Of a DNA stretch of 64,000 bases, positions 1 to 47,642 are shown piece by piece (position 1 is the first letter of the stretch; each line of letters opens with the position of its first letter). A model generated the notes under the pieces. That model did no database searches, had not been told where the DNA came from, and was given only the letters and a program-made list of their open reading frames with translations. Origin of the DNA: a virus; IMG/VR virus record IMGVR_UViG_3300022934_000004; one strand, 5' to 3'. The position numbers were made by a program, and so were the translations under genes.

Positions 1-2339
1 CCTATGGTACTACAAATTATATCCATCAATTCATTACAGATAAGTTTCCATCAGACATTAAATTTAATCCTAATCATATTAACATTGTAAACTTTGATAT
101 TGAGGTTGCTTCAGATGATGGTTTTCCTATTCCAGAAGCAGCGGCTCATCCTATTACAGCAATTACTTTAAAGTCTAGTAAGTCATCTATATTTCAAGTT
201 TGGGGTTTAGATAATTATGATCCTTCTAAAACTGAACTAGATCTTGATGGAAGTCTTATTCAATATCACCATTGCAAGTCTGAAGAAGAATTACTTGTTA
301 AGTTTATAAATTATTGGACCAAAAATTATCCTGATGTAATCACAGGTTGGAATTGTCGTTTTTTTGATATTCCTTATCTTGTAAATCGTATTCATAATCT
401 TGGTACACAAGAAGCAGTTAACAAACTTTCTCCTTGGGGACTAGTTAATGATCGTCCAGTATATCGAGCTAATCGCCAACTTCCGGCTTTTGAAATTGTT
501 GGAATACAGCAAGCTGATTATTTAGAGTTGTTTACTAAATTTGGATATTCATATGGTCCTCAAGAATCATATAAGCTAGATCATATTGGTTATGTTGTAG
601 TAGGTGAACGTAAACTATCATATGAAGAACATGGTAATTTATATACTTTATATAAAAAAGATCATCAAAAATTTATTGACTATAATATTAAAGATGTTCA
701 ATTAGTTGATCGTATTGATGCTAAGATGGGCTTAATTAATTTAGCTTTAACTATGGCATATAAAGGTGGTGTAAATTTAAGTGATACATTTGGAACGACT
801 AATATATGGGAATCTATCATTTATCGTAGATTGCTTAGTAAAAATGTTATTACTCCACTTAAACAAATAGATCAAATTCGCTGGTATCAAATTGCTGGTG
901 CAACCGAAACATCAAAGAATAAACCTGGTTCTGAAGCAAGAAAGAAAGGTAAGTCTCATTCCATTGCTGGAGGCTTTGTAAAGGATCCACAGGTCGGTGG
1001 CCATGATTGGGTGGTTTCCTTTGACTTAAATTCTCTATATCCTAATATTATTGTTGAATATAATATTTCTCCAGAAACAATGATACGAGATCCTCGCATT
1101 TGTTTCTCTCAAGGTCCAGATAATTATATGAAAGATGATAATAAAGTTAATGACAATTATTCTATTGCTGCTTCTGGTGTAGCATTTAGTAAAGAAAGAC
1201 AAGGTATAATTCCAGAATTAATTGTAGATTATTATGCTGAAAGGTCAACAATTAAAAAACGAATGTTATCAGCTAAATCTGAATATGAAAAATCTAAGAA
1301 TTCTAAACTGGAATCTGAAATCAATCAACTTGAAAATAATCAGATGGCAATTAAAATTCTTTTAAATTCTCTTTATGGCGCCTTAGCAAATCAATACTTT
1401 AAATATTTTGATAATGCTTTAGCTGAATCTGTAACACTAACAGGTCAGCTTTCTATTAAACGCGCAGAAAAAGCAGTTAATAATGAAATGAATAAACTGC
1501 TAAAAACTGACAAAGATTATGTCATAGCAATTGATACTGATTCTGTTTATATTAATATGGGTCCTTTAGTTAAAAAATTACAACTAAAGAATCCAGTACA
1601 AGATTTAGATAAACTATGTAGTAAACATTTCGAACCAATTATTGCTGCTGAATATTCTAAACTATTTAATAAAATGAATGCCTATACACCTCGTATGGAA
1701 ATGGGTAGAGAAGTTATAGCTGATCGTGGTATATGGACTGCAAAAAAACGATACATATTAAATGTACATAATAATGAAGGTGTACAATATGCAGAACCAA
1801 AACTCAAGATCATGGGTATTGAAGCTATTAAATCATCTACACCTGCAGTTGTACGTGATAAATTTAAAGAAGTATTTAAAATTATTGTTACAGGTGATGA
1901 ACAAAAAACTCGTCAGTTTATAGATGATTTCAGATCTACATTTAAATCTTTACCTGCTGAAGATGTTTCCTTTCCTCGTGGTGTAAGTGAAATAGACAAA
2001 TGGAAAGATCGTAAAACAATTTATGGTAGAGGTACACCAATTCATGTAAGAGGTTCTTTACTATATAATCATTATTTACGTGACCACGCACTTGACAAAA
2101 AATATAGTGAAATTAAAAGTGGGGAAAAGATTAAATATTCTTATTTAAAATTACCTAATCCTATACGTGAAAATGTAGTTTCTTTTCCAGATTATTTACC
2201 ACCTGAATTTAATCTTCATAAATATATTGACTATGATTTACAATTTGAAAAAACATTTATTGAACCAATCACACCAATCTTAGATGCAGTAGGATGGTCT
2301 TTAAAAGATGAAGCAACCTTGGAGGACTTTTTTGTATGA
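1..2339 (+). CDS. 43: Family B DNA polymerase (T4 gp43-like), 5'-truncated by the window edge
   Basis: Frame is open from nt 3 (YGTTNYIHQ...FDIEVASDDGFP, ExoI), well upstream of the 528 TTG call; motifs SFDLNSLYP, KILLNSLYG, IDTDS, KKRY. Confidence 0.97.
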   Translation, partial: YGTTNYIHQFITDKFPSDIKFNPNHINIVNFDIEVASDDGFPIPEAAAHPITAITLKSSKSSIFQVWGLDNYDPSKTELDLDGSLIQYHHCKSEEELLVKFINYWTKNYPDVITGWNCRFFDIPYLVNRIHNLGTQEAVNKLSPWGLVNDRPVYRANRQLPAFEIVGIQQADYLELFTKFGYSYGPQESYKLDHIGYVVVGERKLSYEEHGNLYTLYKKDHQKFIDYNIKDVQLVDRIDAKMGLINLALTMAYKGGVNLSDTFGTTNIWESIIYRRLLSKNVITPLKQIDQIRWYQIAGATETSKNKPGSEARKKGKSHSIAGGFVKDPQVGGHDWVVSFDLNSLYPNIIVEYNISPETMIRDPRICFSQGPDNYMKDDNKVNDNYSIAASGVAFSKERQGIIPELIVDYYAERSTIKKRMLSAKSEYEKSKNSKLESEINQLENNQMAIKILLNSLYGALANQYFKYFDNALAESVTLTGQLSIKRAEKAVNNEMNKLLKTDKDYVIAIDTDSVYINMGPLVKKLQLKNPVQDLDKLCSKHFEPIIAAEYSKLFNKMNAYTPRMEMGREVIADRGIWTAKKRYILNVHNNEGVQYAEPKLKIMGIEAIKSSTPAVVRDKFKEVFKIIVTGDEQKTRQFIDDFRSTFKSLPAEDVSFPRGVSEIDKWKDRKTIYGRGTPIHVRGSLLYNHYLRDHALDKKYSEIKSGEKIKYSYLKLPNPIRENVVSFPDYLPPEFNLHKYIDYDLQFEKTFIEPITPILDAVGWSLKDEATLEDFFV

Positions 2340-3061
2340 ATTATATTTTTGACGTTGACGGTACACTAACTCTTAGTCGGCAAAAAATTAATACAGAGTT
2401 TAAAGAATTCTTTTTAAATTTTATTAAAAAGAATAATTGCTATTTAGTTACAGGTAGCGATTATGAAAAAACACTTGAACAATTAGGAGAAGACATTTGT
2501 GAAAATGTAACTGCCTCTTTTAATTGTGCAGGAAATAGCGTTTGGCAAAAGGGAAAACAAACATGGGCTAATGAGTGGAAACTTCCTGCAGATGCAAGAG
2601 AATGGTTGGAAGGCATGTTAGAAGAATCTGGTTTTTATCGTAAAACCGGTAATCATATTGAAGAACGACCTGGTATGGTTAACTTCAGTATTGTTGGTCG
2701 TAATTGTAATCTTGAAGAAAGAGCAATGTATAGAGAATGGGATCAACATAAAAATGAACGTCAATTTATAGCAGCAGCTTTTGAAGATACGTTCGGTCTT
2801 TCTGCTCAAGTTGCAGGAGAAACAGGAATTGATATCGTTCCACCCGGCGCAGATAAAAGTCAAGTAGTAGGATGGATTGAAAAACCAATTGTTTTCTTTG
2901 GCGATAAAATGCAATTAGGTGGAAATGATTATCCACTAGTAAAAGCTCTTGAACAATATAGTAATACCAATTCTATTCAAGTTAAAGATTGGAAAGACAC
3001 ACAAAGAATGTTATGGGCATTAGAAAATCCGGTTGTACATGAGCACGTAGGTGTGGTATAA
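2336..3061 (+). CDS. HAD-IIB phosphomannomutase-like (eukaryotic PMM type) hydrolase
   Basis: FDVDGTLT, VTGSD, IEERPGMVNFSIVGR, FFGDK...GGND motifs. Confidence 0.85.
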   Translation: MNYIFDVDGTLTLSRQKINTEFKEFFLNFIKKNNCYLVTGSDYEKTLEQLGEDICENVTASFNCAGNSVWQKGKQTWANEWKLPADAREWLEGMLEESGFYRKTGNHIEERPGMVNFSIVGRNCNLEERAMYREWDQHKNERQFIAAAFEDTFGLSAQVAGETGIDIVPPGADKSQVVGWIEKPIVFFGDKMQLGGNDYPLVKALEQYSNTNSIQVKDWKDTQRMLWALENPVVHEHVGVV

Positions 3062-3062
3062 T
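3034..3062 (+). promoter_or_regulatory. Early sigma70-like promoter
   Basis: TGTACA-17nt-TATAAT with TGG extension. Confidence 0.7.
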
Positions 3063-3067
3063 ATATT

Positions 3068-3580
3068 ATGCGTTTCAAGAATGTTGTGGTGATTGTCGAT
3101 GCATGGCAAACTTGGCCTGATGAAGATGTTAGAAGTCACGCACTTATTGAAACAGAAGCACATACATTTGGTAATTACATAAATACAATGTTACCTTATA
3201 TAAGAAATGTAAGTGAAGTGTTTCATTATACCGGATATCCAGAATATAAAAAATATGGATTAATGGAATCTATAGACAGAAAAAATGATAAAGTAATATA
3301 CAAATTAAGTGATGTAATTGATGATGATAGATATATTCATCACTGGATAAACAACGTAAATAGAATTTATGTATGTGGATTTCACTATGATATTTGCGTA
3401 AATAATGTATTAGAAAAATACGAAAAAAAATGGGATGTTCCAAAAGAAAAATTAGGAGTACTTTTAAATATGACAATTCCACACCCATGTGGCACATATA
3501 AGTTTAGTCAACCTGACTATGATCATTATATGTTTACGATTAGAGGATCATTTGAAAAAATTAAGGAGTTTAAATTATGA
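3068..3580 (+). CDS. Isochorismatase/cysteine-hydrolase-like protein
   Basis: VVIVDAW near N-terminus and YVCGFHYDICV. Confidence 0.5.
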   Translation: MRFKNVVVIVDAWQTWPDEDVRSHALIETEAHTFGNYINTMLPYIRNVSEVFHYTGYPEYKKYGLMESIDRKNDKVIYKLSDVIDDDRYIHHWINNVNRIYVCGFHYDICVNNVLEKYEKKWDVPKEKLGVLLNMTIPHPCGTYKFSQPDYDHYMFTIRGSFEKIKEFKL

Positions 3581-3990
3581 GTGATTGGGCAAATGACATT
3601 TACATGATGCACAATAAATTTGGAGTACGTGAATGGTTTGATAAAAATAAAGAAGATAAAGATCTTATGCGGAAATATATTATGTTTCGTATGCTAATGA
3701 TTGGTGAAGAATATCAAGAAACATTGTCAGCTATTAATAATTCTGATGCAGAAGAAGTTGTTGATGGCCTTATTGATATGTGTGTATTTGCTATCGGTAC
3801 TCTTGATGTAATGGGAGTAGATGCTAATGAAGCATGGGATAGAGTGTATGAAGCTAATATGGCAAAAAAGCCTGGTGTAAAACCTGGTCGGCCTAATCGT
3901 TTTGGTTTACCTGATTTATTAAAACCTGGCGGTTGGAAAGGTCCAACTCACGAGGGGAATGTTGGTGATCTACCACGCATTATTGACTGA
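3577..3990 (+). CDS. All-alpha NTP pyrophosphohydrolase (MazG/PRA-PH-like; candidate dCTPase/dUTPase)
   Basis: EEYQE...EEVVDGLID acidic motif, W..V..ANMAK...GLPDLLKP. Confidence 0.75.
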   Translation: MSDWANDIYMMHNKFGVREWFDKNKEDKDLMRKYIMFRMLMIGEEYQETLSAINNSDAEEVVDGLIDMCVFAIGTLDVMGVDANEAWDRVYEANMAKKPGVKPGRPNRFGLPDLLKPGGWKGPTHEGNVGDLPRIID

Positions 3991-4169
3991 TGACTGAAGG
4001 ACCATTTAAGACCGCATTTGATTCTGACACTGACGGTGTAGTTAGGCGTGAAATTATTACTTATCGTATGCGGAATGGCATGATGATAAAAGAAGAAGCA
4101 AGCCGTGATTATTATGCCTCAGGTGATTATCACGATACAAGCAACACCAAGCCTTTGGTTCACCGGTGA
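3990..4169 (+). CDS. Small hypothetical protein (59 aa, MTEGPFKTAFD...), not in ORF track
   Basis: Start overlaps the upstream stop (TGATG) and the ORF fills the intergenic gap. Confidence 0.6.
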   Translation: MTEGPFKTAFDSDTDGVVRREIITYRMRNGMMIKEEASRDYYASGDYHDTSNTKPLVHR

Positions 4170-4175
4170 TGTATA

Positions 4176-5105
4176 ATGCAAACAACCTTAACTATATTCA
4201 AATCAATATTTGATAATAAGACTCATCGTAAGATGGAGTTTTCAACCTTTATGGAATTTGAAAGCTTTCTTTACAAATTATCAAAGACTAAATATAGTAA
4301 TAAAAAAGAAGCATCACTCATTTCACCTGCTACATATATATTAGACTCAACACGTGCTAATAAGAATGTAGTTGATTGGGGTGGGTGGTGTGCAATTGAC
4401 GTTGATGATCATCAGTTTGAAGGTAATTTAAAAGAGGAGCTAATAAAAAAATATGGTGAGTATCATTTTGTCTGTTATTCTACTGCTAGCTCTAGAGAAA
4501 ACTTTCCAAAGTTTCGTATGGTCTTCCCAATTACGCAAAGAGTTGAAGCAAATAACCTCCCACATTTCTGGTTCGCACTCAACAGCGAATTTGGATCCAT
4601 TGGTGATAAACAAACTAAAGATTTATCACGAATGTATTATATCCCTGGTACGTACGCTGGCAGTTTCAACTTTATCTTTACTAATCCTGGCGAGTATATT
4701 GATCCGCTAAAACTTATGAGAAAGCACGCTTATGTTGAAAAGAAATCAAGTTCATCTTTCTTAGATCGTATGCCAGAAGAATTACAAAAACAAGTAATAG
4801 AATATAAAAAATCTAAATTAACAAATACAGACGTCACTTGGACTGGATATAAGGATTGTCCATTTTTTCCTCGTAGATTAGAGTCAGAATATAAAACAAT
4901 AAGTAACACTGGTTGGTATCATAAGATGTATCAAATCATGGTTGCTTTAGCAGGAAATGCTTTGAAAAATCAATATCCAATCACCGCACAACAAATGGCA
5001 GAGTTATGTAGAGAACTAGATATTGAAACTGGAAACTGGTATGCAAATCGTCCATTAGAAGTAGAAGCAGATAGAGCATTGGAGTACGCTTATAGAAATG
5101 TCTAA
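4176..5105 (+). CDS. Archaeo-eukaryotic-type primase (prim-pol-like)
   Basis: WCAIDVDD (DxD), YSTASS..PKFRMVFP, D.QTKDLSRMYYIP; helical C-terminal domain. Confidence 0.7.
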   Translation: MQTTLTIFKSIFDNKTHRKMEFSTFMEFESFLYKLSKTKYSNKKEASLISPATYILDSTRANKNVVDWGGWCAIDVDDHQFEGNLKEELIKKYGEYHFVCYSTASSRENFPKFRMVFPITQRVEANNLPHFWFALNSEFGSIGDKQTKDLSRMYYIPGTYAGSFNFIFTNPGEYIDPLKLMRKHAYVEKKSSSSFLDRMPEELQKQVIEYKKSKLTNTDVTWTGYKDCPFFPRRLESEYKTISNTGWYHKMYQIMVALAGNALKNQYPITAQQMAELCRELDIETGNWYANRPLEVEADRALEYAYRNV

Positions 5106-5874
5106 AATCGTATTAGTCACAGGTGGATTTGATCCTATACATTCAGGTCATATTTCTTATTTAAGTCAAGCTAAAAAATTAGGAAATAGATTAGTAGTTG
5201 GATTAAATTCTGATGAATGGTTAGCAAGAAAAAAAGGGAAAGCCTTTTTACCATATGAAGAGAGGGTAGCAATTGTTGAAGCGCTTGAAATGGTTGATTG
5301 GATTATTGAGTTCGACGATTCTGATAATAGTGCTATTAACGCTATTGATAAGATTCTTTCTGACACTATGGACACTGTTGTATTCGCTAATGGCGGAGAC
5401 AGAAATAATGAAAATACTCCTGAGTTTTTAAAATATCAAAATCATCCTGATGTAGAATTTGTTTTTGGTGTTGGTGGTGATAAAACAAATTCTTCTAGTT
5501 GGATATTAGATGAATGGAAAACACAAAAAACACTTAGAGATTGGGGTTATTGGAGAGTGTTAGATGATAAAGGAACAGTGAAAGTAAAAGAACTTGTAAT
5601 AAATCCAGGCTGCAGTTTAAGTGATCAAAGACATTATCATAGAAGCGAACATTGGTATATATTAGAAGGTTCTATGAAAATGGATATTGAAAGAGGTGAT
5701 ATTATTTCAACCAATGTTGGTAGAGACGAAACGATAATTTTAAAACAACATCAGACTTATATTATACATAGAGAAGATTGGCATAAAGCTTATAATCCAT
5801 TTGATAAACCTTGTCACATATTAGAAGTTCAATACGGAACTAAGTGTATTGAAGAAGATATAGAAAGAAGATGA
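5098..5874 (+). CDS. Cytidylyltransferase fused to a cupin (mannose-6-P isomerase type II-like)
   Basis: GGFDPIHSGH, ANGGDR, NSSSW; C-terminal RDWG...LSDQRH..RSEHW...EVQYG...EEDIER. Confidence 0.85.
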   Translation: MSKIVLVTGGFDPIHSGHISYLSQAKKLGNRLVVGLNSDEWLARKKGKAFLPYEERVAIVEALEMVDWIIEFDDSDNSAINAIDKILSDTMDTVVFANGGDRNNENTPEFLKYQNHPDVEFVFGVGGDKTNSSSWILDEWKTQKTLRDWGYWRVLDDKGTVKVKELVINPGCSLSDQRHYHRSEHWYILEGSMKMDIERGDIISTNVGRDETIILKQHQTYIIHREDWHKAYNPFDKPCHILEVQYGTKCIEEDIERR

Positions 5875-6026
5875 TAAAAGCAGAAAAAGAAATTATTTGG
5901 CATCTTACATGTACTCAATGTAAAGGACATTGGAGTTACGCTACAATGGAAGAAAACTATTGTATTGAAAGAGGTAACTTACATTGTCCACATTGTGGTA
6001 AAAAAGAATCCGTAAAAAAAACGTAA
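5871..6026 (+). CDS. Small zinc-ribbon protein (51 aa), not in ORF track
   Basis: CTQC...CPHCG; ATGA overlap with the upstream gene. Confidence 0.65.
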   Translation: MIKAEKEIIWHLTCTQCKGHWSYATMEENYCIERGNLHCPHCGKKESVKKT

Positions 6027-6083
6027 GTGATTGTTTTTAAATGAAACAAAATGGTGTACAATTCATAAGAACTGTGGTAGTAT
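6014..6083 (+). promoter_or_regulatory. Early promoter with upstream conserved IHF-like box
   Basis: TAAGTGATTGTTT at 6024-6036; TGTACA(6055)-17-TAGTAT(6078). Confidence 0.7.
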
Positions 6084-6098
6084 AGTAATTATGAATGG

Positions 6099-6710
6099 AT
6101 GGAAGGCGATACAATGTGCAAAGCTAAAGACAATCATTATGAAATATACTCTGCAATTTTAACAGTGGCTAAACAACTTGAACCACTATATGGTACTAGT
6201 GATGAAATCGATGGTGTAATTACTTTCTCACTAGGCAACGCACTCTTCGGTGCACCTAATATTTTTAATGGAATGTGTACGCCATCGTGTCAATTTACTC
6301 AAAAACCTGGACCAGGTAGAGACACAACATGGGAACATATATGGGGTCGTAAAAATTCATCAATCACAATTATAGAACAAATTCGTAAAGGCAAAAGCGA
6401 TAAATTTTTAGTTAATCTTATTAAGTCTCGTTGTAGAGTTGCTATTACTTTGAAGACAGAAAATCAAGCTCTGAAACCATATCAGAATGATGAAGAACTA
6501 GCAAAGAAACATCCTCGACAAGCATATAAAGCAGCGGGACTTACTTGGGTTAATTGGGTTGGAAACAAGGTTTACAATATTGAAGGAATAACTTATAATA
6601 CTCGTGAGGCAATATTAAACGATTATGATTTAACTCCTGAACAATTGACATACCGTTTAAGCAAAGCCGCGACAAAATGGAAGGACTGGACAATTGAAAG
6701 AATCAATTAA
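6099..6710 (+). CDS. Hypothetical protein, possibly a degenerate HNH-like nuclease with a C-terminal DNA-binding module
   Basis: TWEHIWGRK motif; C-terminal YNIEGITY...LTYRL...WKDW resembles homing-endonuclease DNA-binding modules. Confidence 0.35.
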   Translation: MEGDTMCKAKDNHYEIYSAILTVAKQLEPLYGTSDEIDGVITFSLGNALFGAPNIFNGMCTPSCQFTQKPGPGRDTTWEHIWGRKNSSITIIEQIRKGKSDKFLVNLIKSRCRVAITLKTENQALKPYQNDEELAKKHPRQAYKAAGLTWVNWVGNKVYNIEGITYNTREAILNDYDLTPEQLTYRLSKAATKWKDWTIERIN

Positions 6711-8576: not shown

Positions 8577-8758
8577 GTCTCCATATCTTTGCATCGCCAA
8601 TGGTAGCATTTTTTATGATACTCATATGGGCAGCATTGTTTGGTGATACTGTATTCTTTCTAATAGAAAATAATATGATTGAAGAATGGATTATTTGTAT
8701 ACAGATTTATATTTCAATAATGTTATTAGTAAAATTTAAAAGGACTTTGTATAAATGA
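8573..8758 (+). CDS. Small membrane protein
   Basis: Two hydrophobic segments; ATGA overlap at 8573. Confidence 0.45.
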   Translation: MSLHIFASPMVAFFMILIWAALFGDTVFFLIENNMIEEWIICIQIYISIMLLVKFKRTLYK

Positions 8759-9540
8759 GAATTATCGCCGGACCATGTCAACATGAAACCTTTGAACAAA
8801 GTTTAGAAATCGCTTTACATTGTAAAGATGTTTGTGATAAGTACGAAGCTGAATATTATTTTAAAGCTAGTTTTGATAAAGCAAATAGAACAAGCTTGAC
8901 TGGAAAACGTGGTCTTGGTATGCCAATGACTCTACATCATTTCCGTGATTTAAAAACCGAAATACCTGGTCTTAAAATTCTTACTGATGTTCATAGTGTA
9001 GAACAAGTTAGACAATTGGGGTATCAAGGTAGTGGAAATCTAGTAGACGTACTACAGATTCCAGCATTTCTCTGTAGGCAAACAGATTTAATTGTTGAAG
9101 CTTGTAGAACAGAGAAAATAGTAAATATAAAAAAAGGTCAATTTCTAGCGCCTTGGGATGTTACAGGAATTTTAAGTAAAACACAAGGTGCTAAAGAAGT
9201 ATGGATAACTGAAAGAGGTACAAGTTTTGGATATAATAACCTTGTTGTCGATTTCACTGGTGTTGACTATATGCTTAATAATTATGACTGCGATATTGTT
9301 CTCGATGTTACTCACTCTGTCCAAAAGCCCGGCGGAATTGGACATTGCTCGGGCGGTGCTCCTATTCACGTGCCTGGGTTGGCTCGTTGTGGGGCTGCTT
9401 TGGGGGTCACTTCCTTCTTTATCGAAGTCCACCCTATGCCTGAATCCGCACCCAGTGATTCGGAAAGTATGCTTAGATTAGATGATTTTGAAAGAGTTGT
9501 AGATGAAATCCACCGCTATTCTTATTCCAGCGAGATATGA
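8755..9540 (+). CDS. kdsA: KDO8P synthase
   Basis: IAGPC, KASFDKANRTS, QIPAFLCRQT, NIKKGQF, TERG.SFGY, D.THSVQ. Confidence 0.95.
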   Translation: MRIIAGPCQHETFEQSLEIALHCKDVCDKYEAEYYFKASFDKANRTSLTGKRGLGMPMTLHHFRDLKTEIPGLKILTDVHSVEQVRQLGYQGSGNLVDVLQIPAFLCRQTDLIVEACRTEKIVNIKKGQFLAPWDVTGILSKTQGAKEVWITERGTSFGYNNLVVDFTGVDYMLNNYDCDIVLDVTHSVQKPGGIGHCSGGAPIHVPGLARCGAALGVTSFFIEVHPMPESAPSDSESMLRLDDFERVVDEIHRYSYSSEI

Positions 9541-10180
9541 GTCAAGTAGATACCCTGGTAAGCCATTAGTTAATCTTGGTGAAATGACTATGATTGAAAG
9601 AGTGTATGAGACTTGTGCTGATACAGGTTTAGATACATATGTACTTACTGATGACTATAGAATTGCTTCATTATTTAATGACAATAATTGTCGATTAGAT
9701 ACTACAGAATATAATAATGGTACAGAAAGATGTGCCGGAGCGCTCGATAAAATACCAGAATATGATCAGTACATAAACGTTCAAGGTGATATGCCTGATG
9801 TGAATAAGCATATGATTAATAAAGTAATATGGCATTTAAAGCATTACCCTATCACTACTCTTTTCACCGATATGCCAGAAAAAATGCGAAATGATCCTAA
9901 CTCTGTAAAAGTAGTAAGAGGTGGAGATAAAGCCCTTTGGTTCGGAAGAGGAATGGCAGGCTATGGCGATTGGCATTTAGGAATTTATGGATATAAAAGA
10001 AATCCTTTACAATTCTATAGCAAGTATGGTATAATAGAAGAAGAAAGAATAGAACAACTAGAGCAATTGCGCTGGTTAAAAACAGGTTGGGACATAGGTA
10101 TACTGCATACTGAATTTAATGGAATAGAAATTAATACACCAGAAGATGAAAAAAGGTGGAATGAAAAATGGCTAATATAG
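9503..10180 (+). CDS. kdsB: CMP-Kdo synthetase (3-deoxy-manno-octulosonate cytidylyltransferase)
   Basis: IPARYESSRYPGKPL, GTERC, NVQGD, HLGIYGY, EQLEQLRW, INTPED. Confidence 0.93.
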   Translation: MKSTAILIPARYESSRYPGKPLVNLGEMTMIERVYETCADTGLDTYVLTDDYRIASLFNDNNCRLDTTEYNNGTERCAGALDKIPEYDQYINVQGDMPDVNKHMINKVIWHLKHYPITTLFTDMPEKMRNDPNSVKVVRGGDKALWFGRGMAGYGDWHLGIYGYKRNPLQFYSKYGIIEEERIEQLEQLRWLKTGWDIGILHTEFNGIEINTPEDEKRWNEKWLI

Positions 10181-11358
10181 AAATAATAACTAACCCAACT
10201 GGCAGATCTCCTGAGAATAAAATATTTTATGGAAACTTAGCTAGAAAACTAGATTTATCAAGACCAAAATATAATAAGATAGGCGAAGAAAAATATTTTT
10301 GGGAATTTTATGAAGATTTAAATGAATACAATTATAAACATTACTTGCATTTTTATACTTCTCGTCGCGGTTTTGCTGTCTTAACTAATGATGATAGACA
10401 TGCTCAATTTGTAAGAAACATGTTTTCAGTAGTAGATGATCCAACTGAACATTATGCAGAATGGAAAATTATTCACAACACTGAAATTAATTGTCCACCT
10501 ACAATTGCTGTACATTTAGATGAAAAAATTATGTTAATTGGTGGAACTACTTTTCTAGGTGAAATTAAAAAAGGAGTGTTTGGTATTTTAGGATTTGAAT
10601 TACCAGACGAAAATGTTTTACCAATGCATTGTAGTGCTTTTACTTTTAAGGATAAAACTAATCTTATGTTTGGATTAAGTGGAACAGGTAAAACAACATT
10701 AAGTAGTGATCCTCAATTTGGTTTAATTTCAGATGATGAAGTATCTTGGAATGAAGAAGGCATCGCAAAAGTTGAAGAAGGCTGCTATGCTAAATCAGAA
10801 GGTTTGTCACCTGAAACACATCCAACTATTTTTAATGCTGTGGAAGCTGCAAAAAAAGCTGAAACATTAGTAATAGAAAATCCTGGTGCTGCTAATGCTA
10901 GATTAAGTTATCCTTTAAAGTATGTAGAAAATGCATATATAAATGATACACAATTCAAACATCCTAATAATATATTTTTTCTAACAATGGATGCTACAGG
11001 TAGTTTTCCTCCAGTAAGTAAAATTTCTGGAGAAACTGTAAGACGGTTCTTTGAAACTGGATATACAAGTCAAATGCCAGGCACTGAAGCAGGTGTTGAA
11101 GAAATTAAAAAAATATTTTCACCATGTTATGGATCACCTTTTATGCCTAGAAATGTAAATGTATATAGCGATATGTTAATGGAAAAAATAGAAGAACATG
11201 ATGTTAATGTTTATTTAATTAATACTGGTATGGATAAAAAAGGTAAAAGATTTCCATTAGAATTTACTCGTAATTGTGTAACAAATTCTCTAATTAGAGG
11301 AGCCGAAGATAGAAGCGAAGAAGTCTTAGAAATCTTAGAAAGGATGATAAATGGGTGA
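10168..11358 (+). CDS. pckA: ATP-dependent phosphoenolpyruvate carboxykinase, compact form (396 aa)
   Basis: TGRSP, GEIKK, PMHCSA, FGLSGTGKTTLS, DDE, GCYAK, FSPCYGSPF, YLINTG. Confidence 0.9.
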   Translation: MANIEIITNPTGRSPENKIFYGNLARKLDLSRPKYNKIGEEKYFWEFYEDLNEYNYKHYLHFYTSRRGFAVLTNDDRHAQFVRNMFSVVDDPTEHYAEWKIIHNTEINCPPTIAVHLDEKIMLIGGTTFLGEIKKGVFGILGFELPDENVLPMHCSAFTFKDKTNLMFGLSGTGKTTLSSDPQFGLISDDEVSWNEEGIAKVEEGCYAKSEGLSPETHPTIFNAVEAAKKAETLVIENPGAANARLSYPLKYVENAYINDTQFKHPNNIFFLTMDATGSFPPVSKISGETVRRFFETGYTSQMPGTEAGVEEIKKIFSPCYGSPFMPRNVNVYSDMLMEKIEEHDVNVYLINTGMDKKGKRFPLEFTRNCVTNSLIRGAEDRSEEVLEILERMING

Positions 11359-11820: not shown

Positions 11821-11821
11821 T

Positions 11822-12259
11822 ATGAAAGTAGGATTTACATGTAGTACGTTTGACTTGCTTCATGCTGGTCATATCGCAATGCTAAGAGAAGCAAAAGAAC
11901 AATGCGATTGGCTTATTTGTGGATTGCAAGTAGATCCGTCTTGGGATCGTGAAGAAAAAAACTCACCTATTCAAAGTGTAGTAGAAAGATACAAACAACT
12001 TTCTGCAGTAAAATATGTAGATGAAATCATTGTTTATTGTACAGAATCCGATTTACTTGATATAATAAACATGTATCCAATTGATGTACGTATACTTGGT
12101 GATGAATATAAAGATAAAGATTTTACTGGCAAAGATGAATGTAGACGTAGAAATATTTCTTTATATTTTAATAAACGAGACCACAGATTTTCGTCATCAG
12201 ATTTGCGTAAAAGAGTATTTGAAAGAGAGCTAGAAAAAAATGATTCTCCAAACGGTTAG
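11822..12259 (+). CDS. Glycerol-3-phosphate cytidylyltransferase-like (TagD family)
   Basis: FDLLHAGH, VKYVDE, RDHRFSSSDLR. Confidence 0.85.
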   Translation: MKVGFTCSTFDLLHAGHIAMLREAKEQCDWLICGLQVDPSWDREEKNSPIQSVVERYKQLSAVKYVDEIIVYCTESDLLDIINMYPIDVRILGDEYKDKDFTGKDECRRRNISLYFNKRDHRFSSSDLRKRVFERELEKNDSPNG

Positions 12260-12938
12260 TGACATACGTCAATTTTTTATTGATGAACTAAATGATGAAG
12301 CCTTTACTATAGATAAAACAGGTCAAAAAACTATTGAGTTAATTGGTGCTAATTTTTTATGCACTGAACCTGCTATTTTTGGTACACCTAGTCAAGAATA
12401 TATTAACAAAGAAATAGCTTGGTATGAATCAGGTTCAACAAACATTTATGATATAAATGGTGTTGATTCAGATGCACCTCCTCAAGCATGGCAATACGCA
12501 GCAAATAAACATGGTGAAATAAATTCTAATTATGGTCACTTACTTTTTTCTGAAAAATATCATTATCAATTCCAACATGCCTTTGATGAATTACAAGCTA
12601 ATCCAGATTCACGTCGTGCACAAATGATTTATAACCGTCCATCAATATGGTGTGAATATAATGAAGGCGGTAAATCTGATTTTATTTGCACTAATGCACA
12701 AACATTTTATATTCGTGATGGCATACTTTCAATGGTATCTCAAATGCGTTCTAATGATGTTGTTTATGGATATAAAAATGATTATGCTTGGGCACAATAC
12801 TTAATGGATAAATTTGTAAGAGAATGGAATTCATTAGCAGAAATTTATGGTGAACATGGTCCTATTGAAAAAGGTATGTTAATGTGGCAAGTCATGAATT
12901 TACACGTGTATGAACGTCACTTCCATTTAGTTAAATAA
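12240..12938 (+). CDS. 42: dCMP hydroxymethylase (T4 gp42-like thymidylate synthase family)
   Basis: INSNYG, SDFICTN, MRSNDVVYGYKNDYAW (Asp at the cytosine-specificity position), NLHVYERHF. Confidence 0.9.
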   Translation: MILQTVSDIRQFFIDELNDEAFTIDKTGQKTIELIGANFLCTEPAIFGTPSQEYINKEIAWYESGSTNIYDINGVDSDAPPQAWQYAANKHGEINSNYGHLLFSEKYHYQFQHAFDELQANPDSRRAQMIYNRPSIWCEYNEGGKSDFICTNAQTFYIRDGILSMVSQMRSNDVVYGYKNDYAWAQYLMDKFVREWNSLAEIYGEHGPIEKGMLMWQVMNLHVYERHFHLVK

Positions 12939-12947
12939 GGATATGGA

Positions 12948-14182: not shown

Positions 14183-14328
14183 ATGTTAATAAAATTTTAC
14201 ATTACTTGGATATGGCATATTAGTACTTGGAAGTTTAAAATTACACCTAAAGAAGTTAGATGTAATAATGAAACTACCAGGTATTATTCTATTAGAATAG
14301 GACCTATCTGGATGAAGTGGTATGTAAA

Positions 14329-14577
14329 ATGAACTGGTTAATAGTAGTAATATTTGGAACATTGCAAGGCGATGTTTATATTTTTGAAAAGCCTAGGTTT
14401 GAAACTAGAGAAGAATGTATGGTTAGTATTAGAGATCCATTAGATCAAATCGCGTATCTTGGAAAATTAAAAGAAGAATATGGAAAAGACATGCCAATAT
14501 TAGCAGTAAACTGTTTGCAAGAAAAAGTAATAAAAGAAATATTAAAAAAATCTTTTGGTGAAGAGCAAGAAGTATGA
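14329..14577 (+). CDS. Small signal-anchored protein with two Cys (dispersed family)
   Basis: MNWLIVVIF...FETREEC...VNC. Confidence 0.55.
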   Translation: MNWLIVVIFGTLQGDVYIFEKPRFETREECMVSIRDPLDQIAYLGKLKEEYGKDMPILAVNCLQEKVIKEILKKSFGEEQEV

Positions 14578-15008
14578 AATGGGATATACGATATTTAAAA
14601 TTAGCAGAAGAAGTATCTAAGTGGTCTAAAGATCCATCTTCTCAAATCGGTGCTATTGCTGTAGGATCTAAAGGTCAAGTTTTATCTCAAGGATATAATG
14701 GTTTTCCTAGAGGAATAACAGATTCTCTTGATAGATATGCAGTGAGAGAAACTAAATACAAGTACATAGTACATGCTGAACAGAATGTAATTTATAACGC
14801 AACATACAACGGAGTATCATTAGATGGAGCTACCTTATTTGTTCATGGCTTGCCTGTTTGCAACCATTGTGCTCTTGGTGTTATTCAGGTAGGAATAAAA
14901 AGAGTTGTTATGCCAAGACAAAAAATAAAAGAACAGTGGGTCGAGTCATGGAATATGACTAAACAATTATTTGATGAAGCAGGCGTAGAGTATGAATTCA
15001 TTTGCTGA
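14574..15008 (+). CDS. cd: dCMP deaminase
   Basis: SKDPS, GYNGFPRG, HAEQN, PVCNHC. Confidence 0.92.
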   Translation: MKWDIRYLKLAEEVSKWSKDPSSQIGAIAVGSKGQVLSQGYNGFPRGITDSLDRYAVRETKYKYIVHAEQNVIYNATYNGVSLDGATLFVHGLPVCNHCALGVIQVGIKRVVMPRQKIKEQWVESWNMTKQLFDEAGVEYEFIC

Positions 15009-15717
15009 AATGTATTCCAAAATTATAGAGGGATACAGATGGACAGTAATAAATGTAGACACTACTCATAGGTGTTTACTTCAATGTCAGTTTTGTTCAC
15101 GCCAATCTGAAGTTCAAGGACAACCTATGATTTCTGATTATAGGAAATCTTATGGTGATTTAAAATCAAAAGAATTGAGAAAGTTAACTAACTTCGTAAG
15201 AAGTGGCATTTCATTTTGTGGTCAGATTTCTGATCCTATCTATCACAAAGATTTTATTTCATTATTGTCATCAATAGATGATGTAACATATTTAGAAAAA
15301 ATCGAAATTCATACAAATGGATCTGGAAAAAAACAAGAGTATTGGGATGAACTTGTAGATGTAGCTTGGCAACTTCCAACTAGAATAGAATGGCACTTTG
15401 GTATAGATGGCATAGATGAAAAAGCAGCTATTCATAGAGTTGGCCAAGATTTTCATTCAGCTTTTGAGGCAATGAAATATGTAGCATCAAGGCAAAGAAG
15501 AGAACCTGAATGGGAAAGGTGGAGAGTCATTTGGCAATACATTCCATTTGCATATAATGAACATGATATTATGAAAGCAAAAGAAATGGCAGATGAAATA
15601 GATGTAGAATTAATATTACTTACTTCAGGTAGGTTTAATCCTGACAGTCCAGTTGCTCCTCCTACAAATATAAATTTAATTTCTAAAAAACTATTTGGTG
15701 AGAAAAAAAGAGTATGA
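14992..15717 (+). CDS. Radical SAM protein
   Basis: CLLQCQFC (CxxxCxxC), HTNGS, FGIDG, YNEH. Confidence 0.85.
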   Translation: MNSFAEMYSKIIEGYRWTVINVDTTHRCLLQCQFCSRQSEVQGQPMISDYRKSYGDLKSKELRKLTNFVRSGISFCGQISDPIYHKDFISLLSSIDDVTYLEKIEIHTNGSGKKQEYWDELVDVAWQLPTRIEWHFGIDGIDEKAAIHRVGQDFHSAFEAMKYVASRQRREPEWERWRVIWQYIPFAYNEHDIMKAKEMADEIDVELILLTSGRFNPDSPVAPPTNINLISKKLFGEKKRV

Positions 15718-16028
15718 AACTTTATCCTCAATGTTGGAGCGTAACAATGGAAGGCGATTATAAACCCAATGATGGATTTCCTGGTGCAGGAAATGGTTTA
15801 GCCTTTACTGCTTCAGGGCATCTTCTTCCTTGTTGTTATTTAGATAAGTATCACAACTATAAAAATAATACTAAAAATTTATGGGATGATGAATTAAGAG
15901 TTGATCGAAATGATGACATTCTTGATATTATAGAATCAGAACAGTGGTATAACTTTCACAAAGAATTATATGAACATCCTGAAAATGCATGTAAAGAATG
16001 TCACATGCATTGTTCTTCACCAAAATAA
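15714..16028 (+). CDS. Stand-alone SPASM/Twitch Fe-S domain protein
   Basis: C...GHLLPCCY...C..C...C; directly follows the radical SAM gene. Confidence 0.7.
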   Translation: MKLYPQCWSVTMEGDYKPNDGFPGAGNGLAFTASGHLLPCCYLDKYHNYKNNTKNLWDDELRVDRNDDILDIIESEQWYNFHKELYEHPENACKECHMHCSSPK

Positions 16029-16037
16029 AAAAAATAG

Positions 16038-16066
16038 TTTACATTTGTGTAAAAATATGTTAGAAT
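16038..16066 (+). promoter_or_regulatory. Promoter for the GT-epimerase-dehydrogenase-MTase operon
   Basis: TTTACA-17-TAGAAT. Confidence 0.7.
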
Positions 16067-16123
16067 TATATTTAATAATCATAAATACGTATATCACACA
16101 CTTGTAAATTTAAGGAATCATAA

Positions 16124-17371
16124 ATGACTAGAATTGCTATTATCCTTGGTCGTGGTACTGAAGGCTGCGGTGTAACACAATGTGCTATTCAAATGCAAAA
16201 AGTAACAGGAGCAGATATCTATTCTGCAATTGATAAAAAATGGGGACGAGCTAAAGGATTAGAAATTGATCAAAAAGAATTTGTAATGGGTACGCAGTGG
16301 GAATTAACTGCAGATGTTATTAATTCAATGTATGATTTAGCAATCATTTATTCAGTACCTTCTAAGTCTCATCCACAAGATTGTCAAGATAATTTTGTAC
16401 CATTTTTACAGAGACTAAAAATACGTAAAGCGTTTATTAATGTAGACCATAAAGCTGCTTCAATAGCACGTAATGCTAATCTAAAAGAAGTTTGCGAAAA
16501 TGTTGATGTCATTATGACTCACAGTCTTGAAAATGATTTCTCAAAATTTATGAAGAAAAATAGAATCCAAACTCCATTAACTAAAATGGGTTTGGGTTTT
16601 GATTATGAGGATCACCGTCAAAAGTATTGGCGACCAATTGAAGAACAACAGCATAATATGGTTCGTTGGATTGGTCGTACTGCAATGTGGAAAGGTCCTA
16701 GTTTAATGATTGATTTCCATCAAGATGCTTTGATGGAGCAAGGATTTATAACTGTCCTTGAAGGTTTAGAAGCTTCTATACAATATCCTCTTGTTTTATA
16801 TCGTGATAATAAAGAAGATAATCCTGTTGATCGCCGCATGGTTGAAAATTATTTTAGACCAGAAAAGAAATTTAATGAAGTCAAGTTTACACCTGACTTG
16901 TATGGTAAAGAAGAAACCAATAAAGGTGCTTATCTATATCCTCAATACATAAATAATGAGGCAATGATGAGAATGGCACGTTCAGCATTTGGTTCAGATC
17001 TTTATCATTTAAAAGCAGAAACATATGGTAACAATATTGAAAATTGTCATGCTGAATGTATTGCATCTGGCACTGTACCATTATTCCATAAACATTTCTG
17101 TGATAACGTAATACACCCTGTACAGGGTGATCCTATTAGTCAATGCAAAAATTCTGGCACTCTTGGTGTTGACTATACTAATTTTAAAGAGTGTCAAGAA
17201 ATGATGACAAAACTCAAAAACGATCCGTCTATGAGAGATGATTGGAGAGAAATGGCATTTGAATTTTGGAAACAACACTCCAATGGTGAGGATGTTGTAA
17301 ATGAAATTATTGATCTTGCTATTAACACAACTGAAAACCAACCACAAGGACTAGAGGAATTTTTCGTATGA
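16124..17371 (+). CDS. DNA alpha-glucosyltransferase-like GT-B enzyme (hmC glycosyltransferase)
   Basis: N-terminus IAIILGRGTEGCGVT resembles T4 alpha-gt (ICIFMARGLEGCGVT, recalled); WIGR...K, E...G..P. Confidence 0.75.
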   Translation: MTRIAIILGRGTEGCGVTQCAIQMQKVTGADIYSAIDKKWGRAKGLEIDQKEFVMGTQWELTADVINSMYDLAIIYSVPSKSHPQDCQDNFVPFLQRLKIRKAFINVDHKAASIARNANLKEVCENVDVIMTHSLENDFSKFMKKNRIQTPLTKMGLGFDYEDHRQKYWRPIEEQQHNMVRWIGRTAMWKGPSLMIDFHQDALMEQGFITVLEGLEASIQYPLVLYRDNKEDNPVDRRMVENYFRPEKKFNEVKFTPDLYGKEETNKGAYLYPQYINNEAMMRMARSAFGSDLYHLKAETYGNNIENCHAECIASGTVPLFHKHFCDNVIHPVQGDPISQCKNSGTLGVDYTNFKECQEMMTKLKNDPSMRDDWREMAFEFWKQHSNGEDVVNEIIDLAINTTENQPQGLEEFFV

Positions 17372-18327
17372 AAATTTTAGTAACAGGTATTGCCGGCATG
17401 ATCGGCTTTCACGCAGCCAGGCACTTCGCAAAAAATAATTGGGAAGTATGTGGCTTAGACAATTTTAATGATTATTACGATCCACAATTAAAAGAAGATC
17501 GTGCTAACATTTTACAAGAAGAATATAATGTTCCTATTATGCGAGGGGACATTGAAGACTTTAAAGTAATTAATGACAATACGTCATTTATGAAAGATGT
17601 AGATATTGTATTACACTTAGCTGCATATGCAAATCCAAGACACGCTCTTGAAGAACCGCAACCATATATTGATACTAACATAACTGGAACACAACGTATT
17701 ATAGAAGTATGTGAAGAACTAAACATACCAGTTGTATATGCATCAAGCTCCTGCGTTATGCATGGACAGCCTTTACCTTGGAATGAACATGATCGACCAG
17801 ATTTACAAAACAATCCATATGGTTGGTCTAAACGAGTAAATGAATGTCAGTTTTCTCATTCTAAAATTTCACGTTCTGCAGGCCTTCGCTTCTTTACAGT
17901 GTATGGACCATATGGTCGACCAGACATGGCTCTATTTAAATTCACAGATGGAATCGTTAAAGGTGAACCAATCACACTTTATAATTATGGTGATATGAAA
18001 CGTGATTTTACCTATGTACAAGACATCGTAGATGGTATAGAATTAGTAGTAGATAAAGCTATGAATGAAACCAATCAAGAATGGCATGAAATCTATAATA
18101 TTGGTTATGGCCAACAGGTTAATCTATTAGATTTTGTAGATGAAATTGAAAAAAATCTTGATCGGAAAGCAGAAAGAGAATTAGCGCCTAAACATCCTGC
18201 AGATGTCCCTGAGACGTGGTCTGACACTACTAAATTACAAGCGTTAGGTTATAATCCTAAAACTTCTATAACAGATGGTGTTAAAGAATTCATTACATGG
18301 TACAAAAGTTATTATGGAGTTAATTAA
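17368..18327 (+). CDS. UDP-glucuronate 4-epimerase-like SDR
   Basis: TGIAGMIG, DNFNDYYD..LK..R, YGWSK, LRFFTVYGPYGRPDMA, RDFTY. Confidence 0.88.
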   Translation: MKILVTGIAGMIGFHAARHFAKNNWEVCGLDNFNDYYDPQLKEDRANILQEEYNVPIMRGDIEDFKVINDNTSFMKDVDIVLHLAAYANPRHALEEPQPYIDTNITGTQRIIEVCEELNIPVVYASSSCVMHGQPLPWNEHDRPDLQNNPYGWSKRVNECQFSHSKISRSAGLRFFTVYGPYGRPDMALFKFTDGIVKGEPITLYNYGDMKRDFTYVQDIVDGIELVVDKAMNETNQEWHEIYNIGYGQQVNLLDFVDEIEKNLDRKAERELAPKHPADVPETWSDTTKLQALGYNPKTSITDGVKEFITWYKSYYGVN

Positions 18328-19145
18328 TGAGAATGACAATTGTTGGCCACGGGTTTGTTGGCAAAGCTGTGGATTATGGCTTTTCAAATAAAGCTATTAC
18401 TAAAACTATCATCGATCCTCTCTATAATACTACTTTAGATGATGTAGAATTAAGTGAAGATATAACGTTTGTTTGTGTTCCTACACCTATGGGTAAAGAT
18501 GGATCGATCGATTGTTCTATTGTAGTTGATACTGTAACAAAACTTTTGCTACGTAGATCAGGAATCATTGTTATTAAATCAACTGTGACACCTGACATAA
18601 TTGAAAAATTTTCAAGACGCGGTGGAGGTGCTAGAGTAGTTTACAATCCTGAATTTTTAACTGAAAAAAATGCATGTGAAGATTTTGTAAATCCATCTAT
18701 GCATATTTTTGGAGGAAATCCAGAAGCTACAGAAAGATTAGAACAAATCTATAAAGACTTTAGCTTATGCAAGCCGTGTCCTGTATATCACATGACGTCC
18801 ACTGATGCAAGCTTTGTAAAGTATGGAATTAATTGTTTCCTTGCATCAAAGGTCTTATGGATGAATCAATTTTATGATGTCATAGAAAACTTTGGAGGAA
18901 ATTATGGTGTTATCAGTAACGCAATTGGAACAGATCCAAGAATTGGTAGGTCTCATATTACTGTGCCTGGGTTTGATGGCAAGCGTGGCTTTGGTGGCGC
19001 TTGCTTCCCAAAAGACACAGCAGCGTTTGCGAACTTTGCGAAATCTTTTTCCGTTTTAGAAAAAGTTATCGAAGAGAATAATAAGTATCGTAATTGTTAT
19101 GATAAAGATGAAAGAGAAAAGGCTCAGAATGTAAATTATGGTTAA
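18327..19145 (+). CDS. UDP-glucose 6-dehydrogenase (lacks the C-terminal domain)
   Basis: GHGFVG, CVPTP, KSTV.P, NPEFL, GFGGACFPKD. Confidence 0.88.
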   Translation: MRMTIVGHGFVGKAVDYGFSNKAITKTIIDPLYNTTLDDVELSEDITFVCVPTPMGKDGSIDCSIVVDTVTKLLLRRSGIIVIKSTVTPDIIEKFSRRGGGARVVYNPEFLTEKNACEDFVNPSMHIFGGNPEATERLEQIYKDFSLCKPCPVYHMTSTDASFVKYGINCFLASKVLWMNQFYDVIENFGGNYGVISNAIGTDPRIGRSHITVPGFDGKRGFGGACFPKDTAAFANFAKSFSVLEKVIEENNKYRNCYDKDEREKAQNVNYG

Positions 19146-20328
19146 GTATGCAAGTATAGTTCCACTCATTGGTGGAGAAACAATAGCAATGCAAAATGTA
19201 TTTGGGACAAAACCTGAATATATATTATCATATACGGACTTTGAAGCAAATGACAGCCAACTTCTTAATTATTACGACAATAGCGTTCCTTATTATAAGC
19301 TTGACGTGGGTGGTCTTGCGCCTCATAGTGTCGATGTTGTCAACACTGTTTGCCCTTGCGCTGGCTTGTCTTCCCTTTCTCCTAGCAGCAATGCTGATAG
19401 CAGCACTAATGACTGGATGGTCAAGTCAGCAGAATATGTTTTGGAATCAATTCAGCCAACAGTTTTTTGGGGAGAAAATGCTCCAAGATTAGCAAGCAAA
19501 ATGGGTGAAAAGGTTGTAGCACAACTTCGTCAACTAGCAAGAAAAAATGGTTATACCTTTAGCATTTATAAAACTAAATCTATTTTACATGGACTAAGTC
19601 AAATTAGAGATAGAACTTTCTATTTTTTCTGGAAAGGTAACTCAATTCCAAGATTTAATTTTTATAAAAGACAATATGAAAAAATTGAAGACACTATTCG
19701 TTCTGCTGCAACCAATGAAGCAGATCCAATGTTTGAAACTTTAACAAATAGTAAGACTCCATCTGAAGAACCTTTTTATCAATACGTATTACAAGAAATG
19801 CATGGTGGTATTAGTCATATGGAATTTTTCAATTTAATTGAAAAAACAACCAATCCATTGCATTATATTGAAGACAAAGGTGTTGATTACGAAGATGTAG
19901 CAAAATGGATGGACGATAATGGCCATGAAAATCATGCACGTAAATGTCGTAGGATGGGTGAAAAGCTAAAAGCTGGTGGTAACATTATGAGAAAAACTAC
20001 AGAAGTTGGTAAAAATTATATTGGTGCTTTTGTTGGTCATTTTCCAATGGAACTTACTCATCCAGATCAAGACAGATATTTAAATATTAGAGAAGCTTTG
20101 TCAATTATGAAAATGCCTAAGGATTTTCAATTAGTAGGTGGTCGAAAAAACATTAATATGATTTGTCAAAACGTTCCAGTAACTACTGCACAAGACATGG
20201 CTGAAAATGTAAAAAGATTTTTAAGCGGTGATGCTTGTCTTGTTGAGTCAGATTTCGTAATTCAAGATAATAAATCAGAAACCTTTTGGTCTGAAAAACA
20301 ACCGGCAACATTAGAAGCATTTATGTAA
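19138..20328 (+). CDS. Divergent C5-cytosine DNA methyltransferase-like protein
   Basis: CPCAGLS (motif IV), GENAP (VI), Q.RDRTF (VIII), HP..DRYLNIRE (IX), QNVP (X); atypical motif I SIVPLIGG. Confidence 0.8.
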   Translation: MVKYASIVPLIGGETIAMQNVFGTKPEYILSYTDFEANDSQLLNYYDNSVPYYKLDVGGLAPHSVDVVNTVCPCAGLSSLSPSSNADSSTNDWMVKSAEYVLESIQPTVFWGENAPRLASKMGEKVVAQLRQLARKNGYTFSIYKTKSILHGLSQIRDRTFYFFWKGNSIPRFNFYKRQYEKIEDTIRSAATNEADPMFETLTNSKTPSEEPFYQYVLQEMHGGISHMEFFNLIEKTTNPLHYIEDKGVDYEDVAKWMDDNGHENHARKCRRMGEKLKAGGNIMRKTTEVGKNYIGAFVGHFPMELTHPDQDRYLNIREALSIMKMPKDFQLVGGRKNINMICQNVPVTTAQDMAENVKRFLSGDACLVESDFVIQDNKSETFWSEKQPATLEAFM

Positions 20329-47617: not shown

Positions 47618-47642
47618 GGTTACATAATGATAGGAGTAAACT

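Follow-up and report, generated by a model that had tools for sequence, protein, structure and literature searches.

The window analyzed here, 64,000 nucleotides from an uncultured marine T4-like phage (IMG/VR record IMGVR_UViG_3300022934_000004; G+C ~33%), encodes two putative DNA-modifying enzymes, a homolog of the T4 alpha-glucosyltransferase (alpha-GT) and a C5-cytosine-methyltransferase-like (C5-MTase-like) protein, which end in the same kind of short peptide as the phage's own DNA polymerase, gp43. These tails are likely to be lineage-specific docking peptides for the sliding clamp gp45, borne by gp43, the late sigma factor gp55, the alpha-GT-type glycosyltransferase (GT) and the C5-MTase-like enzyme, and to tether DNA modification to new phage DNA. 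The three shared ends, to which the original prediction had drawn attention, proved exact on translation: gp43 terminates in ...DEATLEDFFV, the alpha-GT homolog in ...QPQGLEEFFV and the MTase in ...QPATLEAFM. Among the 23,288 residues encoded by plus-strand open reading frames (ORFs) of at least 60 amino acids, six matches to the strict motif L[ED]xF[FLIM] were counted; three of these are the extreme C-termini of the same three proteins and the other three are internal. No other ORF of the window, on either strand, has such an ending. By our own arithmetic, which starts from the three internal matches, ~0.05 terminal matches are expected in 137 ORFs and three were observed, and the three shared tails exceed chance. 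The motif of the window phage can be written as [T/N/G]-L-E-x-F-[F/M] followed by zero to two residues, and it forms the very tip of a C-terminus that is flexible.

gp43 itself is a family-B DNA polymerase whose 3' part opens the window (3..2339, plus strand, 5' end open; Pfam DNA_pol_B, E = 3e-32; phrog_262, E = 4e-278), and its full length, read on an overlapping contig, is 858 amino acids. Its tail ATLEDFFV (2313..2336), the presumed gp45-binding peptide of the lineage, has the layout of T4 gp43 (...SLDFLFG). The gp43 proteins of relatives end in QTLEDFFV, in the ATLEDFFV-like variants ATLEDFFA and ATLEDFFG, or in ASLESFFM and NTIEDFFS. The C-terminal tails of gp43, gp55 and gp33 in T4 (PMC9690074) and RB69 are gp45-binding elements, and the T4 record agrees with that background, on which the original prediction had leaned, in showing an (S/T)LDFL-type peptide at the C-termini of gp43 (KASLDFLFG), gp55 (SPSLDFLYEAND; ...SLDFLYEAND) and gp33 (TNTLDFLL). 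The gene for gp33 of the window phage falls beyond the DNA covered here; the gp33 orthologs of two relatives end in LNSLPFDDI (G001:C1:74285-74527) and QNTLYFE (G002:C1:13777-14082), a loose likeness to the motif that falls below that of gp43 and gp55.

The alpha-GT homolog (16124..17371, plus strand; 415 amino acids, GT-B fold) matches PF11440 (AGT) over residues 60-367 (E = 1e-30; 107.5 bits, cut-off 25) and phrog_2888 (E = 5e-69). It is ~30% identical to enterobacterial T4-type a-gt, with alignments that stop at residue 398-401, and T4 alpha-GT ends in ...FDIITK, with no polymerase-like tail; the tail QPQGLEEFFV (residues 406-415; 17339..17368), which extends past the T4-type a-gt body, is therefore regarded as an appended extension. 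An internal AYEFLY of T4 alpha-GT was considered as an LDFLY-like tail and rejected, since it aligns with a conserved helix (AFEFWK in the window protein). The C5-MTase-like enzyme (19138..20328, plus strand; 396 amino acids) matches PF00145 (DNA_methylase; E = 9e-18; 65.1 bits, cut-off 22) from residue 63 onward, and several family motifs are readable in it, namely CPCAG (PC, IV), GENAP (ENA, VI), QIRDR (VIII) and QNVPV. Its motif I is atypical, with PLIGGE instead of the canonical S-adenosylmethionine-binding FxGxG. Its tail, QPATLEAFM, occupies residues 388-396 (20299..20325).

Conservation in homologs, on which the original prediction had been staked beforehand, was found for both tails, each of which is kept behind a variable stretch in the 120 closest cluster representatives of its enzyme (73-100% identity for alpha-GT, 62-99% for the MTase). 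In alpha-GT, residues 396-405 are variable and contain indels, Q406, P407, G409, L410, E411, E412, F413 and F414 are 93-99% conserved, and the final residue varies or is absent. In the MTase, residues 380-390 rank with the least conserved positions in the whole sequence, and T391, L392, E393 and F395 are 79-97% conserved and followed by zero to two residues. Consistently, AlphaFold 2 (AF2) confidence is low at both ends: in the alpha-GT model (predicted local distance difference test, pLDDT, of 80) the last helix stops at residue 401 and pLDDT drops to 53 at the C-terminal end, and in the MTase model pLDDT is 93 overall and 51 in the last block. Both tails thus look as short linear motifs do, with a conserved end after a variable stretch and low AF2 confidence. 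Alpha-GT and MTase genes occur together at 54 IMG/VR loci, with both tails present in nearly all of them. In a sub-lineage found in two samples (L045:1208-6093 and L212:1560-5749), alpha-GT ends in GLEGMLQ and the MTase in ALS[DN]LQ; both tails have changed together and Phe-Phe is gone from both, a natural case of co-variation. The gp43 and gp45 genes of this sub-lineage were sought and not recovered.

The start of the window is overlapped by two IMG/VR contigs and several ENA/JGI contigs, one of which (L003) is 99.66% identical to it over 4,639 bases and carries regA, gp62, gp44, gp45, gp46, gp47 and gp55 upstream of gp43. The gp45 sliding clamp lies at L003:8163-8837 (phrog_223, E = 6e-72), with the clamp-loader genes gp44 and gp62 nearby, and gp55 at L003:4742-5326 (phrog_234, E = 1e-50). 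The C-terminus of gp55, ...DSNLEEFFEE, serves as an internal positive control, T4 gp55 being a known clamp client, and its NLEEFF differs from the GLEEFF of alpha-GT by a single residue. The layout is as in T4: on the polymerase a single residue follows the motif, and on gp55 the motif is followed by an acidic extension. A 64-amino-acid ORF between gp45 and gp44 (L003:8843-9037, plus strand), without a family match, ends in an acidic run (…EAFKQEEDEADE), and its position is conserved in all six contigs.

As the original prediction had suggested, the phage's gp45 was co-folded with a tail, that of the MTase, using the gp45 trimer, the last 45 MTase residues and alignments of our own making. The tail stood out from its controls, with a score of 0.61 in all three runs against 0.00-0.18 for the controls; the mark applied to this score is reached by 58 of 80 solved complexes and by 2 of 110 mismatched pairs. 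At least 85% of contacts were shared between runs, and the pLDDT of the partner did not fall below 42. Only MTase residues 388-396 contact the clamp in the model, all on one subunit, with L392 and F395 as the best-defined contacts; the gp45 residues contacted are 32, 35-39, 104-110, 181, 199-201, 214 and 216-219. In the model, the N-domain, the interdomain loop and the C-domain of that subunit all contribute to the site, which we take to be of the type known from the RB69 clamp with its bound peptide. The clamp-tail interpretation is thus supported in silico, by a predicted docking site from which we infer real binding.

In related T4-like phages, tails of this kind are also found on modifying enzymes of other folds. 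In phage C48C1 (complete genome), gp43 ends in ATLEDFFG, a Dam-type D12-class N6-adenine MTase (PF02086, E = 1e-23) in STLDAFFG and a Tet_JBP dioxygenase (PF12851, E = 3e-17) in ISLEEFFV. Stenotrophomonas phage DLP_6 has a TET/JBP homolog with the end ATLGDFFV and a gp43 with the end ATLDSFFA, and in Caulobacter phage Cr30 the corresponding ends are GATLF and DLSSLFD. Genome-wide censuses of two complete relatives, C48C1 and G001 (146.6 kb, with direct terminal repeats), found the tail only on gp43, on gp55 (in variant form), on DNA-modifying enzymes and on a baseplate hub protein ending in DDFF. The hub protein (phrog_150, E = 8e-62; G001:C1:77254-77964 and C48C1 115098-115820, both minus strand) ends in GLDDFF, GIDDFF or NISDFF, and its conserved DFF end fits the loose tail pattern. 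It was judged a false positive of that pattern and counted as unrelated, because it is a structural protein and its ortholog in G002 ends in NISDFF.

Across more distant lineages, the tail of the MTase varies with the replisome. Among the 50%-identity cluster representatives of the MTase family, 12 of the 127 full-length proteins end in the gp45-type motif and 29 in [LIVM]F, and the tails at IMG/VR loci fall into the classes LExF[FLM], ...KxxLF, ...LLSF/LFNF, ...KYKVxS[IV][IF] and none. In 24 long IMG/VR contigs, gp45 (phrog_223) was present in four of four with LExFF-type MTase tails and in none of the 20 others. In the four that bear gp45 (G020-G023), the tailed MTase gene lies ~1.6 kb from gp45 on the same strand (G020:C1:50248-53696; G022:C1:25404-28820) and no AGT homolog was found, so the role of the MTase does not hinge on the GT. 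The polymerase is DnaE-type in the class with tail-less MTases and split family-B in the other classes without a gp45-type tail. Within a contig, the C-terminus of the polymerase resembles the MTase tail: the pairs (polymerase, then MTase) are VRTQLF and KSKNLF in G005, VRTQLF and NSTCLF in G007, SSTQLF and NSRKLF in G009, SAGLW and SVRLF in G010, VQRLLSFD and ESALLSF in G018, VQSLLSF and ESKLFNF in G019, NTIEDFFS and PNLEEFFG in G021, and ASLESFFM and ATLEGFFV in G022 and G023. With one representative for each of seven lineages, the summed similarity of polymerase and MTase tails was reached by none of 1854 derangements, a result that is supportive but is no formal probability, because the lineages are few and partly related.

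The G007 contig, of the xLF lineage, also carries an AGT-family GT (PF11440, E = 3e-6) that ends in NSTKLF, so that the GT-MTase-polymerase triad of the window recurs there, as read from sequence, with a different tail and an unrelated replisome. In three contigs with a DnaE-type polymerase (G024-G026), the MTase and the GT have no hydrophobic tail; in two of them (G024:C1:28523-32551 and G026:C1:127005-131021), the AGT-family GT has a basic tail, KKTRRKK or RVRRKK, and the adjoining MTase ends in VSEEL or VSGEL. A large class of MTases (L116, L118, L121 and L124-L140) has the basic and hydrophobic end PKKKYKV[KN]S[ITV][IF], and the split PolB of these contigs ends in YTTSLF. A phage-encoded beta clamp as the address of the xLF tails was considered and found unsupported, as DnaN (TIGR00663) was not found on any of 25 contigs. 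The xLF member P0474 sits on a 2.4-kb contig, and its gene context is uninformative. No cultured relatives of xLF-type MTases were found beyond the S-TIM5 group, whose MTase has no tail, and one unannotated Pseudoalteromonas phage.

A more general rule may lie behind these observations, and on balance we lean toward it, with less assurance than toward gp45 docking in the window phage: the enzymes that modify phage DNA after replication span four or more unrelated folds (GT-B glycosyltransferase, C5-MTase, Dam-type N6-MTase and TET/JBP dioxygenase), and they would have taken on, time and again, the end peptide of the replicative polymerase they work with, as a portable tag that changes with the type of replisome, LExFF where gp45 is present and xLF, LLSF or KVxS[IV][IF] in other lineages.

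For the window phage, we propose that the tail of each modifying enzyme would bind the hydrophobic pocket formed by the N-domain, interdomain loop and C-domain of one gp45 subunit. As gp45 is loaded only on replicating phage DNA, binding would concentrate the modifying enzymes on phage DNA that has just been made. Both the GT and the MTase-like enzyme would take a free pocket of the trimer and be carried along the newly synthesized duplex at or just behind the fork, and such tethering would allow one-dimensional scanning of the new DNA. A gp42 ortholog (dCMP hydroxymethylase; 12240..12938, plus strand) is the predicted source of the hydroxymethylcytosine (hmC) needed by the alpha-GT-type enzyme; it is 47% identical to T4 gp42 (E = 2e-72), and both CTN (catalytic Cys) and RSNDVV (Asp179 equivalent) are aligned with their T4 counterparts. 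The hmC from the gp42 pathway would then be glycosylated by the tethered GT, whose predicted family activity is glucose transfer in alpha linkage to hmC. Overall, DNA modification in this phage is probably hooked to newly replicated DNA. The original prediction had placed both enzymes right at the fork and had seen the gain in a shorter period of exposure to nucleases; with tethering as proposed, the enzymes may act at the fork itself or on clamps that stay behind it, and the gain may be of this kind or may lie in discrimination of phage from host DNA or in processivity.

Several points weigh against this reading. The motif of the window lineage, LExF[F/M], is unlike the T4 consensus [S/T]LDFL[F/L/Y]; the phage's own gp43 and gp55 diverge from that consensus in the same way as the enzyme tails. 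gp45 and gp55 were read from a 99.7% identical overlapping contig, outside the window itself. The clamps of RB69 (1B77/1B8H) and T4 (1CZD) have been solved, and the gp45 of this phage is matched by that of RB69 (E = 7e-20), so the co-fold result may reflect memory of a known complex (1B8H). The co-fold covered one tail, that of the MTase, and drew on self-made alignments. In addition to the small number of lineages behind the derangement result, the class with YTTSLF on the polymerase and KYKVKSII on the MTase matches weakly. Furthermore, the substrate of the MTase is puzzling, since in a phage with a gp42 ortholog C5 of cytosine may already be occupied. Finally, T4 alpha-GT binds gp45 without such a tail, so the tail is not the sole route to the clamp, and the functional weight of tethering is uncertain, because promoter-swap experiments in T4 trace the ratio of alpha to beta glucosylation mainly to the expression and activity of the enzymes, with a smaller part for clamp affinity (PMC13216743).

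The last of these results also bears on the alternative that survives best, to which we nevertheless give a small weight. The tails may bind gp45 mainly for regulatory competition over the clamp pockets, for example so that late transcription (dependent on gp55 and gp33) or polymerase recycling is delayed until the DNA has been modified, or the clamps used by the enzymes may be orphaned ones that the fork has long passed. With near-identical peptides, gp55, gp43 and the enzymes must compete for three pockets per trimer, T4 late transcription relies on clamps left on DNA (PMC9690074), and the T4 glucosylation ratio is mostly expression-dependent (PMC13216743). However, the tail has been acquired by enzymes of four unrelated folds whose common target is the bases of DNA, for which substrate targeting is the simplest explanation, and the censuses of G001 and C48C1 contained no dedicated small regulator-like proteins with a tail.

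It is less likely still that the shared tail addresses some partner or process other than the clamp, such as another protein of the replisome or the nucleoid, a compartment in which the phage replicates, or proteolysis, with the tail as a degron that sets the lifetime of the enzyme. The failure to find a gp45 or DnaN gene in the xLF and KYKVxS[IV][IF] lineages would fit this explanation, as would the DDFF end of the baseplate hub protein, but the homologous tails of T4 and RB69 gp43, gp55 and gp33 are established gp45 binders, the presence of gp45 tracks the LExFF tail (4/4 vs. 0/20), and the co-fold places the tail in a gp45 pocket spanning the domains, well above its controls. Coincidence, or a functionless relic of shared descent, is scarcely credible for a motif that, short as it is (four to five defined residues), is terminal three times against an expectation of ~0.05, is kept behind variable stretches in hundreds of homologs, co-varies with the polymerase tails, and occurs on unrelated enzyme folds and therefore cannot descend from a common gene; the data already contradict it. 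Docking on gp45 and tethering to new DNA thus remain our preferred explanation of the tails.

The window runs from gp43 through uvsX (20339..21391) to the gp41 helicase (21672..23039), and a large nucleotide-sugar and DNA-modification island lies between gp43 and uvsX. Between the two tailed enzymes (17368..19145) sit a nucleotide-sugar epimerase gene (17368..18327, plus strand; Pfam Epimerase, E = 2e-42) and a gene resembling uridine diphosphate (UDP)-glucose dehydrogenase (18327..19145, plus strand; UDPG_MGDP_dh_N, E = 2e-18; UDPG_MGDP_dh, E = 9e-16), a pair that likely supplies the donor sugar. Because these genes adjoin the alpha-GT homolog, the donor may not be glucose. Further genes of the island encode a phosphomannomutase, a MazG-like pyrophosphatase, a dCMP deaminase and radical-SAM/SPASM proteins, and a KdsA-like gene, a KdsB-like gene and a compact ATP-dependent phosphoenolpyruvate carboxykinase (396 amino acids; PF01293, E = 1e-93) stand in a row at 8755-11358 (plus strand). 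Elsewhere in the window, an RNase H (rnh) ortholog (47640-48494, plus strand; 32% identity to T4 rnh) has the C-terminus ...ENVQEFI, which may be a weak clamp-type end; T4 rnh ends in ...SINEF. No near-identical deposited phage was found, and the closest by gp43 is C48C1 (Kyanoviridae) at 55% identity, followed by cyanomyoviruses at 45-47%.

If the tails dock as proposed, the old idea that phage DNA is modified during replication would gain a concrete handle: a peptide of six to nine residues with named Leu and Phe residues, and a pocket on gp45. Tethering would account for the ability of the modifying enzymes to distinguish phage DNA in replication from the DNA of the host, and for the small amount of unmodified DNA that restriction can reach. 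Should the general rule hold, the co-variation of enzyme and polymerase tails suggests that new or unannotated DNA-modifying enzymes could be flagged from sequence alone, and the tag could reveal clamps not yet known, for instance a processivity factor in jumbo phages without an annotated one. The idea is open to experiment, since the pattern is shared by two phages in culture, Caulobacter phage Cr30 and Stenotrophomonas phage DLP_6. A literature search of incomplete coverage found nothing on polymerase-like clamp tails of phage GTs, MTases or TET/JBP enzymes, which falls short of proving novelty.

Among known systems, the gp45 clients of T4 and RB69 (PDB 1B8H) are the closest, as their peptide is likewise at the extreme C-terminus and consists of a core of Leu and aromatic residues followed by zero to four residues; the window phage has its peptide on the polymerase and the late sigma factor, encodes gp45, and has a modeled site that is alike. 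The peptide differs in reading [T/N/G]LExF[F/M], with an L-x-x-F-F spacing like that of the core of the PCNA-interacting peptide (PIP) box, and its bearers differ in including DNA-modifying enzymes, which are outside the classical client set. Clamp coupling is not wholly new for an alpha-GT, given that T4 alpha-GT was reported to bind gp45 in vitro (Sommer et al. 2004, PMID 15381072, as cited in PMC13216743) and that pull-downs confirmed in 2026 that it co-purifies with gp45, whereas beta-GT does not (PMC13216743). The two cases share the PF11440 family, the clamp family and the idea of replication-coupled glucosylation; in the window phage, however, a discrete appended peptide of 10 residues, near-identical to the gp55 tail, is the candidate determinant. 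The bacterial beta-clamp motif QL[S/D]LF has its likeness in other lineages, where relatives of the MTase end in ...[K/S]x[L/I/V]F (in one case QLSLF) and the polymerases of the same phages share such ends, but the window's own proteins do not carry it, and no DnaN was found on those contigs. Phage 5mYOX dioxygenases have ParB-like activators (PMC13229309) and are similar in that a phage DNA-modifying enzyme is coupled to an accessory protein that slides on DNA; there, however, the accessory is a separate partner of the ParB/CTPase type and not the replicative clamp, and there is no polymerase-like tail.

The window phage may finally be viewed as a prokaryotic-virus counterpart of DNMT1 on PCNA. 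DNMT1 is reported to bind PCNA by a PIP box in replication-coupled maintenance methylation (Iida et al. 2002, as cited in PMC9690074), and the two systems share an enzyme of the C5-cytosine-methyltransferase fold and a short linear motif, predicted in the phage case, that addresses the replicative clamp. They differ in that DNMT1 is eukaryotic and has an internal PIP box, Qxx[LIMV]xx[FY][FY], whereas the phage peptide is C-terminal and its clamp is gp45. The L-x-x-F-F core of the PIP box fits the window tails; their Gln stands at -4 or -2 from the Leu and not at -3 (QPQGLEEFF; QPATLEAFM). The window tails and the PIP box of DNMT1 are functionally analogous, not homologous.

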